From a virus, in UHGV virus genome UHGV-0138564: a stretch of 22,217 nucleotides of DNA. The stretch is one strand, 5' to 3'. This document shows, in pieces, positions 5,446-6,387 of this stretch. Every line of letters begins with the position of its first letter. Within the stretch, counting starts at the first letter, position 1. The notes under the pieces were generated by a model. The model saw only the letters and a list, made by a program, of their open reading frames with translations. It had not been told where the DNA came from and ran no database searches. The position numbers and the translations under genes are program-made.

Positions 5446-6387
5446 ATGAGCACTAAATTAACCGGCTATGTATGGGATGGTTGCGCTGCGTCAGGCATGA
5501 AATTATCCAGCGTGGCAATTATGGCCCGCCTGGCTGATTTCAGTAATGACGAAGGTGTGTGCTGGCCATCAATTGAAACTATTGCCCGTCAGATTGGCGC
5601 GGGGATGAGTACCGTCAGAACGGCTATCGCACGGCTGGAAGCAGAAGGCTGGTTAACGCGTAAGGCGCGTCGCCAGGGTAACCGCAATGCGTCGAATGTT
5701 TATCAGCTTAACGTTGCGAAGCTTCAGGCAGCGGCATTTTCTCAACTGTCAGATTCTGACCCGTCAAAATCTGACGCATCAAAATCTGACACGTCAAAAT
5801 TTGATGCGTCGAAATCTGGCAAAAAAGCGGGTTTTCACCCGTCAGAATCTGGCGGGGATCCGTCAGTAAAATCAAAACATGATCCGTCAGATAAAAAACC
5901 TTCTCGTCCGGACGCTTCGCAACCGGACACGCAGACGGCTGAACAGGATTTTTTAACTCGCCATCCTGATGCGGTTGTATTCAGCCCTAAAAAGCGCCAG
6001 TGGGGAACGCAGGATGATTTGACCTGCGCACAGTGGCTCTGGAAAAAAATCATTGCCCTGTACGAGCAGGCCGCCGAATGTGACGGCGAGGTGGTTCGTC
6101 CCAAAGAACCGAACTGGACAGCATGGGCAAACGAAATTCGCCTGATGTGTGTGCAGGATGGTCGTACTCACAAACAAATCTGCGAGATGTACAGCCGCGT
6201 CAGCCGCGATCCGTTCTGGTGCCGTAACGTGCTCAGCCCGTCGAAGTTGCGGGAAAAATGGGATGAGCTTTCCCTGCGCTTATCGCCGTCCGTCAGCACG
6301 CACACAGAAAAACGTGAAGACCCGTACTTCAAAGCCAGTTACGACAACGTGGACTACAGCCAGATCCCGGCAGGATTCAGGGGGTGA
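5446..6387 (+). CDS. Replication initiator, O-like (N-terminal winged-HTH, low-complexity linker, C-terminal domain), 313 aa
   Basis: N-terminal HTH-type region (SIETIARQIGAGMSTVRTAIARLEAEGWL); central linker encoded by tandem 15-bp repeats; occupies the lambda O position after cII-like genes. Confidence 0.65.
   Translation: MSTKLTGYVWDGCAASGMKLSSVAIMARLADFSNDEGVCWPSIETIARQIGAGMSTVRTAIARLEAEGWLTRKARRQGNRNASNVYQLNVAKLQAAAFSQLSDSDPSKSDASKSDTSKFDASKSGKKAGFHPSESGGDPSVKSKHDPSDKKPSRPDASQPDTQTAEQDFLTRHPDAVVFSPKKRQWGTQDDLTCAQWLWKKIIALYEQAAECDGEVVRPKEPNWTAWANEIRLMCVQDGRTHKQICEMYSRVSRDPFWCRNVLSPSKLREKWDELSLRLSPSVSTHTEKREDPYFKASYDNVDYSQIPAGFRG
5749..5856. repeat. Iteron-like tandem 15-bp repeats inside the initiator gene (candidate ori)
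   Basis: Five tandem units (tcagattctgacccg, tcaaaatctgacgca, tcaaaatctgacacg, tcaaaatttgatgcg, tcgaaatctggcaaa; 5749-5823) plus a dispersed copy tcagaatctggcggg (5842-5856). Confidence 0.5.

Follow-up and report, generated by a model that had tools for sequence, protein, structure and literature searches.

The DNA analyzed here is a 22,217-nucleotide stretch of UHGV virus genome UHGV-0138564 (the window), which is an SfIV/SfII-like lambdoid prophage. A replication initiator gene of the SfIV gp41/SfII "O" type, encoding 313 residues, was identified on the plus strand at positions 5446 to 6387 from its open reading frame and translation. This gene contains in full the element that is the subject of this report, an array of palindromic repeats (iterons) followed by an AT-rich tract, at positions 5746 to 5900, which we propose as the probable origin of replication of the prophage. 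A first-pass annotation of the window, made from the sequence alone, had pointed to the repeats and had read them as marking the prophage origin by comparison with phage lambda.

The initiator gene was 98.9% identical at the nucleotide level to gp41 of Shigella phage SfIV ("replication protein" or "primosomal protein"), and the initiator was about 98% identical to "O" of SfII and to several E. coli phages. It also matched PHROG phrog_391, "replication initiation O-like" (E = 5.5e-135). The N-terminal winged-helix DNA-binding domain (residues 1 to 94; positions 5446 to 5727, plus strand) matched Pfam HTH_36 at residues 23 to 70 (E = 4e-11), confirming the helix-turn-helix (HTH) domain that the first-pass annotation had placed there. 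In the hmmscan search of Pfam, this domain also gave GntR, HTH_29, MarR, and PaaX-type winged-HTH matches, comparison with the PDB returned MarR matches that were weak, and the initiator gave a weak RP-C N-terminal match (E = 0.0046) below the cut-off. Phage_rep_O (PF04492) was not among the hmmscan matches of the initiator, indicating that it lies outside the lambda O family. The comparison with lambda was thus appropriate for the layout, a putative origin within an initiator gene, and not for the protein family. The putative recognition helix has the form GAGxST[VI]R[TSN], and the winged helix is presumed to be the reader of the iterons.

Repeat array and AT-rich tract

Iterons 1 to 5 (5746 to 5820) are head-to-tail units of 15 bp, in each of which a palindromic core of 11 bp, TCARAATCTGR, is combined with a variable spacer of 4 bp. 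The units are CTGTCAGATTCTGAC (5746 to 5760, core 5749 to 5759), CCGTCAAAATCTGAC (5761 to 5775, core 5764 to 5774), GCATCAAAATCTGAC (5776 to 5790, core 5779 to 5789), ACGTCAAAATTTGAT (5791 to 5805, core 5794 to 5804), and GCGTCGAAATCTGGC (5806 to 5820, core 5809 to 5819). Tandem Repeats Finder (TRF) reported a period-15 array at 5755 to 5818 (4.3 copies, 81% matches, score of 79) and a period of 30 with a score of 93; together with the in-register reading, this bears out the five tandem 15-bp units of the first-pass annotation. The unit core is palindromic over 11 to 13 bp (TCAGA-N-TCTGA), the first unit, GTCAGATTCTGAC, being a perfect palindrome. An 18-bp spacer, AAAAAAGCGGGTTTTCAC (5821 to 5838), whose 3′ part, GGTTTT(C/G)AC, is conserved as DNA, separates iteron 5 from a sixth full copy, CCGTCAGAATCTGGC (5839 to 5853), which is the most conserved copy across species. 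Half-copies (GATCCGTCAG) are located at 5857 to 5866 and 5881 to 5890. A search for GTCAAAATCTGAC with up to two mismatches gave 7 matches (6 sites), all between 5748 and 5853, versus 0.67 expected, and none of 100 shuffles reached 7. Neither a second repeat array (TRF) nor a copy of the motif outside the array was detected in the whole 22-kb window, thereby leaving an origin located elsewhere without a candidate. The array encodes the peptide SKSDASKSDTSKFDASKSG, in agreement with the linker peptide initially reported, and is placed 3′ of the winged-helix part (residues 1 to 94) and 5′ of the helical C-terminal domain (residues ~189 to 278).

The sequence located 3′ of iteron 6, GGGGATCCGTCAGTAAAATCAAAACATGATCCGTCAGATAAAAAACC, has the lowest G+C content of the region (0.35 at 5860 to 5899 versus 0.45 to 0.65 around it). 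This tract (5857 to 5900) consists of two 24-bp direct repeats, each of which starts with a GATC and the left half of an iteron site (GATCCGTCAG) and continues with an A-rich run. GATC density was 10.6 per kb in the linker versus 2.7 per kb over the remainder of the gene. In the homologous loci described below, the first GATC was present as the Asp codon GAT in 74 of 74 cases, though GAC is preferred (68%) inside the iteron units, and the second site, GATCC(A/G), located 24 bp from the first, was found in 64 of the 74. From these features we infer that the tract is a candidate unwinding region, possibly sensitive to Dam or SeqA. The element reaches about position 5900 and does not stop at 5856, where it had originally been considered to end.

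A scan for promoters detected nothing promoter-like within the array. On the minus strand, a hairpin resembling a terminator, CGGGTGAAAACCCG with a T-run after it, was found between iterons 5 and 6 (5841 to 5828). Its 5-bp stem is absent from the cross-species consensus (GGTTTTGACCCG), and the hairpin is probably fortuitous.

Conservation of the element in homologous loci

Eighty loci were fetched, with one genome per species, and were chosen by the N-terminal domain only (residues 1 to 94), blind to the repeats. The gene was intact in 74 of these loci, which display N-terminal identities of 57 to 100% and span Escherichia, Citrobacter, Kosakonia, Yersinia, Proteus, Providencia, and others (Enterobacterales). 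The six excluded loci comprised two e14 ymfN-type terminase fusions, one gene truncated at 142 residues, two genes at a contig edge, and L004, which was left out of the species counts since it is essentially identical to the window. Absence of the repeats from close relatives, the observation that the first-pass annotation had named as speaking against an origin, was not encountered, as the repeats were present in all 74 intact homologues. Comparison of repeat number, which it had also suggested, revealed 4 to 8 units per homologue, with 11 units in one locus and changes in copy number by whole units; the number of SKSD units varied from 3 to 7. The dominant spacing was 15 bp (289 of the spacings counted). 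In a count that took in 76 sequences (75 homologues and the window), the core CA[AG]AATCTG was found 273 times in the linkers (14.1 per kb) versus 6 times in about 388 kb of flanking sequences (0.015 per kb).

Codon usage was investigated for S-[KEDN]-S-x tetrapeptides, which were defined at the protein level only. The first Ser was encoded by TCA in 268 cases and by TCG in 28 cases (n = 296), and the second Ser (position 3) by TCT in 236 cases (80%), TCC in 46, TCG in 13, and TCA in 1. AGC or AGT was used at the unit Ser positions in 0 of 296 cases, AGC being the most common Ser codon elsewhere in these genes. Lys was encoded by AAA in 97% of the cases in the linker versus 68% elsewhere. The peptides encoded by the units drift (SKSD, SESG, PESG, SDSD, PKSG, and others) while the nucleotide core is kept, including its dyad symmetry, since T at core position 8 was found almost exclusively in units with A at position 4 (42 versus 4).

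A strong constraint was also found downstream, in a block of 23 codons (GFHPSESGGDPSVKSKHDPSDKK; 5830 to 5898). Codon identity to the window at unchanged residues was 88% in this block (1049/1195) and 43% in the N-terminal domain (2133/4965). The mean frequency of the top codon was 0.91 in 13 block columns versus 0.52 in 58 conserved N-terminal columns, none of which reached 0.9. Seven of the 13 block columns contained a single codon: TTT (the Phe codon of the spacer, 71/71 loci), GAA (63/63), GAT (74/74), TCA (61/61), GTA (73/73), TCA (69/69), and GAT (65/65), the GTA and the two TCA codons being located in the AT-rich tract (5857 to 5900). Within iteron 6, the GAA codon was thus found in 63 of 63 loci and TCT in 69 of 71, and CAGA.TCTGG was invariant in alignment A3. 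The first-pass annotation was therefore right to report further copies downstream of the five units but not to call them degenerate, as they belong to the part of the element (5830 to 5898) that is best conserved across species. Taken together, the codon data show a cis-acting nucleotide element of about 155 bp that is under strong purifying selection as DNA, independently of the peptide.

As a side observation, the reading frame of homologue P0029, from a 920-nt contig, is shifted through the array (DPSNLTHQNLTRQNLMRRNLAK) and restored before GFHPSESGG, so that the DNA is kept and the peptide is replaced. Such a frameshift would favor a role of the DNA, but it is a singleton, possibly due to an error in sequencing, and was left out of the evidence.

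Association of the repeats with the DNA-binding domain

A mosaic junction is located at 5888 to 5924, just 3′ of the conserved block, where homology of the N-terminal half ends and homology of the C-terminal half begins. Citrobacter phage phiNP matched nucleotides 2 to 479 of the gene (up to position 5924 of the window), with the same N-terminal domain and the same repeats and an unrelated C-terminal domain (TIGR02220/Phg_2220_C). Phage mEp460_4F5 matched nucleotides 443 to 942 (from position 5888 of the window); the C-terminal half is common, and the N-terminal domain is different. The repeats found in mEp460_4F5 at the equivalent place are GGTCAAAGTGACC-like with a period of ~23 bp, which is not a multiple of 3, and these repeats are therefore read in different frames. 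The upstream gene order is kept in mEp460, yet both the repeats and the N-terminal domain are of another type.

The initiators designated "O-like" or "primosomal protein I" (24B "O," ST64B sb42, SI5, ZF40 gp14, mEp460, and those of Vibrio phages) share the HTH_36 fold class of the N-terminal domain and the gene layout. In other HTH_36-type initiators, which are 36 to 64% identical in the N-terminal domain, palindromic repeats (2 to 6) are located directly 3′ of the winged-helix part, and after them comes a short block of repeated 10-mers that is conserved. Unlike this layout, the repeat sequences are class specific: GGGGCAGGAGCTGCCC in 24B and SI5 (spacing of 21/24 bp), GTGCAGGAGATTCAC in ST64B (21/24/45 bp), GTGACAAAATGTCAC in Vibrio phage D67 (21/24 bp), GGTCAAATTCCGACC in Vibrio phage PF430-3 (17/22 bp), and TCAAAATTTGA in Kp4866-6 (15 bp), in addition to the GGTCAAAGTGACC-like repeats mentioned above. 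The ZF40 class also has its own palindromic repeats at the equivalent place. The putative recognition helices are STVRTAI in the window, STVKSHI in 24B and SI5, RSVMNHI in ST64B, and RTAMRHI in D67. Among the 74 loci with the conserved core, most have retained the ST[VI]R[TSN] helix, the divergent L072 and L081 having STVIT. Because the repeats change with the recognition helix between classes and with the N-terminal domain between mosaics, they belong to the N-terminal DNA-binding domain.

A block, CCAGAACCAGTCACTCTTTTGAACCAGTCAATGAACC, in which GAACCAGTCA is repeated two to three times, was found just 3′ of the iterons in SI5, 24B, ST64B, ZF40, and Vibrio phage D67. It is conserved as DNA across phages of Vibrio, Pectobacterium, Salmonella, and E. 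coli despite the different iterons. This block resembles the GATCCGTCAG half-sites and could be a common second origin element. The ST64B-class block is devoid of GATC, unlike the tract of the window.

The element as a probable replication origin

We propose that positions 5746 to 5900 are the replication origin of this SfIV/SfII-like prophage, located inside the linker-coding part of its own initiator gene, and we assign a probability of roughly 0.75 to this reading. The initial interpretation of the repeats as the prophage origin is thus supported, as far as comparison of sequences allows, by the signs of selection at the DNA level, the presence of the repeats in 74 of 74 homologues, their co-inheritance with the DNA-binding domain, the repeats of the sister classes, and the adjoining AT-rich tract. 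In the mechanism that we envisage, dimers formed by the N-terminal winged helix would bind the six palindromic iterons. The 15-bp spacing (~1.4 helical turns) would place neighboring dimers on roughly opposite faces of the DNA, and the resulting nucleoprotein array would distort the DNA and open the adjoining AT-rich tract (~5860 to 5900). The half-sites in this tract may hold further initiator molecules, and the two Dam sites (GATC) could couple firing to methylation or to SeqA. The SKSD-rich peptide would be a tolerated flexible linker changing in length by steps of 15 bp (5 codons).

Several points weigh against this proposal. Conservation of the kind described above proves a cis-acting function of the DNA, as read from sequence comparison, and not which one. 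No DnaA box (TTWTNCACA, up to one mismatch) was found between 5164 and 6037; across the whole window, there were 58 matches versus 46 expected. The AT-rich tract is ~40 bp and only moderately AT rich (65%). The 15-bp spacing is unusually tight, since other classes have spacings of 21 to 24 bp or irregular spacings of 17 to 22 bp; among the classes examined, only the close relatives Kp4866-6 and Stx2_KH16-043 also have a 15-bp period. The operon extending from cro to Q encodes no helicase and no P-type helicase loader, and the C-terminal domain or the tail of the initiator would therefore presumably recruit the host DnaB-DnaC directly, as an "initiator-only" module. Finally, no published test of origin activity or of initiator binding was found for this initiator family in the searched literature.

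Part of these points would also fit repeats that bind the initiator for autoregulation, for copy-number control by handcuffing or titration, or as a transcription roadblock, with opening and start of replication occurring elsewhere. DNA constraint and co-inheritance reveal binding sites rather than initiation as such, and the lack of a DnaA box, the lack of a nearby loader gene, and the shortness of the AT-rich tract are all as expected in that case. We nevertheless regard this explanation as unlikely. The window offers no other array or motif copy that could serve as the start site, and an operator would be poorly placed inside the gene, where the sites lie ~1.5 kb downstream of the promoter region on the cro side. 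Furthermore, the GATC-containing AT-rich part is conserved as strongly as the iterons, and the arrangement, with iterons and then an AT-rich tract between the two domains of the initiator, is the canonical lambdoid layout (PMC7466680). Binding of another protein (the DUF4222 product, a CII-like protein, SeqA, Dam, IHF, or Fis) or another function in cis, such as recombination or downstream regulation, would account for the invariant GATC (first site, 74/74), for the DUF4222 gene always annotated beside the initiator in E. coli and plasmid records, and for the half-site block GAACCAGTCA, which is common to classes with different iterons and hints at a common reader. This is improbable, since the iteron core varies with the class of the N-terminal winged helix and not with the neighboring genes; in mEp460, conservation of the upstream gene order did not prevent replacement of the repeats along with the N-terminal domain.

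Two further explanations dispense with a DNA-binding protein. A role as structured RNA within the early-right mRNA, with effects on its stability, translation, or processing, was considered because the fold of 5740 to 5900 has a minimum free energy of −53.2 kcal/mol versus −30.6 kcal/mol for shuffles (z = −6.3). A low energy is, however, the expected by-product of a palindrome array, and single units leave a loop of 1 to 3 nt, which is too short for a hairpin. In 26 gap-free aligned homologues, the covariation score was 0.053 versus 0.056 for shuffles, 376 of 500 shuffles scoring at least as high; pairs changed on both sides numbered 3 versus 4.9 expected, and variable positions break pairs. 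Scanning of positions 4000 to 7500 revealed no Rfam family above threshold, the subthreshold mir-5880 match (31.9 bits versus a gathering score of 97) being caused by the palindromes and discarded. Both the invariance of GATC and the match, class by class, to the DNA-binding domain are features of DNA. The RNA-structure hypothesis was rejected on these grounds, as the strong z-score came with zero excess of covariation in the 26 homologues, and we consider it very improbable. The array might also be nothing other than a low-complexity SKSD linker homogenized by replication slippage, devoid of any role in cis. Its period is a multiple of 3, so that the peptide repeats too, and the number of SKSD units varies. 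Yet Ser codons are exclusive at specific positions across genera in which other synonymous sites are nearly randomized (88% versus 43%), the nonrepeated block at 5830 to 5898 is equally constrained, and the repeats of the mEp460 class are read in different frames. Because codon choice is constrained while the amino acids drift, we rule out a mere slippage-made linker and see next to no chance that it accounts for the element.

Comparison with known origins

In lambda, the origin occupies the center of O and comprises iterons and an AT-rich tract, extra iterons add residues to O, and the number of sites is 4 in lambda and 6 in Shiga toxin (Stx) phages (PMC7466680). The element described here resembles the origins of lambda and of Stx phages 933W and P27 by its central position in the initiator gene, with the DNA-binding domain on one side and the C-terminal domain on the other, and by an array of dyad-symmetric sites with an A-rich center that precedes an AT-rich tract. 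In both cases, the number of sites varies among relatives, adding or removing initiator residues, and in mosaic phages, the sites are swapped along with the N-terminal domain. In contrast to lambda, the N-terminal domain of the initiator is of the HTH_36 type and not Phage_rep_O, the six sites have an 11- to 13-bp core and a 15-bp period, shorter than the lambda iterons of 19 bp, and iteron half-sites occur together with two GATC sites in the AT-rich part. In addition, a P-type loader gene is lacking, the C-terminal domain is of no named family, and the alternating-face geometry, if true, differs from the lambda O-some. The replication modules of 24B (P), SI5, and ZF40 also differ from that of the window, since in these phages a helicase or primase-helicase gene of their own comes after the initiator gene.

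GATC sites are present in the AT-rich unwinding part of Dam- and SeqA-sensitive origins, such as the 13-mers of E. coli oriC and the GATC heptamers of P1 oriR. The tract of the window is similar in this respect but contains just two GATCs and is not accompanied by DnaA boxes. The origin is also embedded in the coding sequence of its initiator in the case of RepC of repABC plasmids and of G38P/oriL of SPP1, although these systems have no significant homology to the present one, another repeat architecture, and other hosts.

An origin of the lambda-style kind is therefore already known, and the putative novelty lies in the initiator family, the sequence of the sites, the 15-bp period, the tract combining GATC and half-sites, and the loader-less operon. 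Whether these traits together define an uncharacterized origin type, among the most common E. coli prophage replicons, with dimers on alternating faces, a half-site opening tract gated by two Dam sites, and a single protein, with a C-terminal domain of no known fold family and a common ...IPxGFRG tail, recruiting the host helicase without a phage loader, is a more tentative proposal, which we view as possible though doubtful. No earlier description of the origin was found in the searched literature, where a prior in silico mention is possible. No origin was mentioned in the genome paper of SfIV or in that of SfI, which has a lambda-like replication module. A text search for the motif strings returned unrelated primer matches only, and no origin was annotated in any database record examined.

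Prophage context

In the early-right operon, a gene encoding a cI-like repressor (3501 to 4193, minus strand) is followed by a cro-like gene (4291 to 4551), a CII/CP76-like gene (4544 to 5101), and a small gene located directly 5′ of the initiator gene (5098 to 5436), for which the name DUF4222 comes from the RefSeq annotation. A Pfam scan at E ≤ 0.01 gave no match for the product of this small gene. A DUF4222-annotated gene is located directly 5′ of the initiator gene in E. coli, Klebsiella, Rahnella, and Pantoea records, and it may be part of the replication module. Downstream of the initiator gene, we found genes encoding a PerC-like protein (6384 to 6749), a LexA DNA-binding-domain (LexA-DBD)-like protein (about 6746 to 7072), RusA (7069 to 7458), a KilA-N protein (7445 to 8275), a DUF968/HNH protein (8277 to 9272), and Q (9275 to 9652). 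The PerC-like open reading frame comprises 121 codons in the window versus 164 in SfIV (gp42) and overlaps the start region of the LexA-DBD-like open reading frame.

The C-terminal part of the initiator comprises an all-helical domain (residues ~189 to 278; positions 6010 to 6279, plus strand) for which no Pfam family and no relation to any named family were found, and which is presumed to recruit host replication proteins. A relative of this domain was found fused to a PF04492 N-terminal domain in protein P0229. The C-terminal tail (...DYSQIPAGFRG; positions 6312 to 6387, plus strand) is common to initiators with unrelated C-terminal domains. The tail ...EDPYFKASYDNVDYSQIPAGFRG is also present in ST64B sb42 and Kp4866-6, and phiNP ends in ...SGFRS. 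The last 76 nucleotides of the gene gave a 98.7% match to many Stx phages, and the tail is conserved in alignment A2, indicating a mosaic joint or, alternatively, a short linear motif meant for a partner protein.

Distribution and significance

Among 5426 complete E. coli genomes, 2107 had a match to the region encoding the N-terminal domain and the repeats (5446 to 5950). This region is split, in E. coli genomes of the K-12 type, between two cryptic prophages with a common breakpoint at nucleotide 234 of the gene (codon 78). In e14 ymfN, nucleotides 1 to 234 are fused to a terminase fragment, and nucleotides 234 to 505 and beyond, repeats included, are found at a locus at about 2.47 Mb, which we take from its position to be the CPS-53/KpLE1 prophage.

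A plasmid collection was searched for a natural mini-replicon. The small matches were an excised e14-like circle and a fragment of a lambdoid prophage, which cannot serve as evidence of autonomous replication. The circular record OR902851.1 (L092; 15,193 bp) is an excised e14-like element with mcrA, pin/hin, an icd fragment, and an initiator relative. The circular record NZ_CP148542.1 (L093; 15,977 bp), which also carries an initiator relative, corresponds to part of a lambdoid early region; it has no annotation for the initiator region, after which comes a gene encoding a DnaC-like ATP-binding protein. Many of the database homologues, a large share of the total, are "partial" proteins located at contig ends, suggesting that assemblies from short reads are often interrupted within or close to the initiator gene, owing to the repeat array, to the presence of several related prophages per genome, or to both.

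These results place the putative origin of a very common enterobacterial prophage replicon (SfII/SfIV/SfV-like and e14/CPS-53 related) at exact coordinates and supply a model of its sites that can be tested. The same 155 bp would have a dual coding role, specifying both a tolerated linker and a cis-acting origin, with an unusually clear signature at synonymous sites. Class-specific palindromes located directly 3′ of the winged helix could predict origins across HTH_36 "O-like" initiators.

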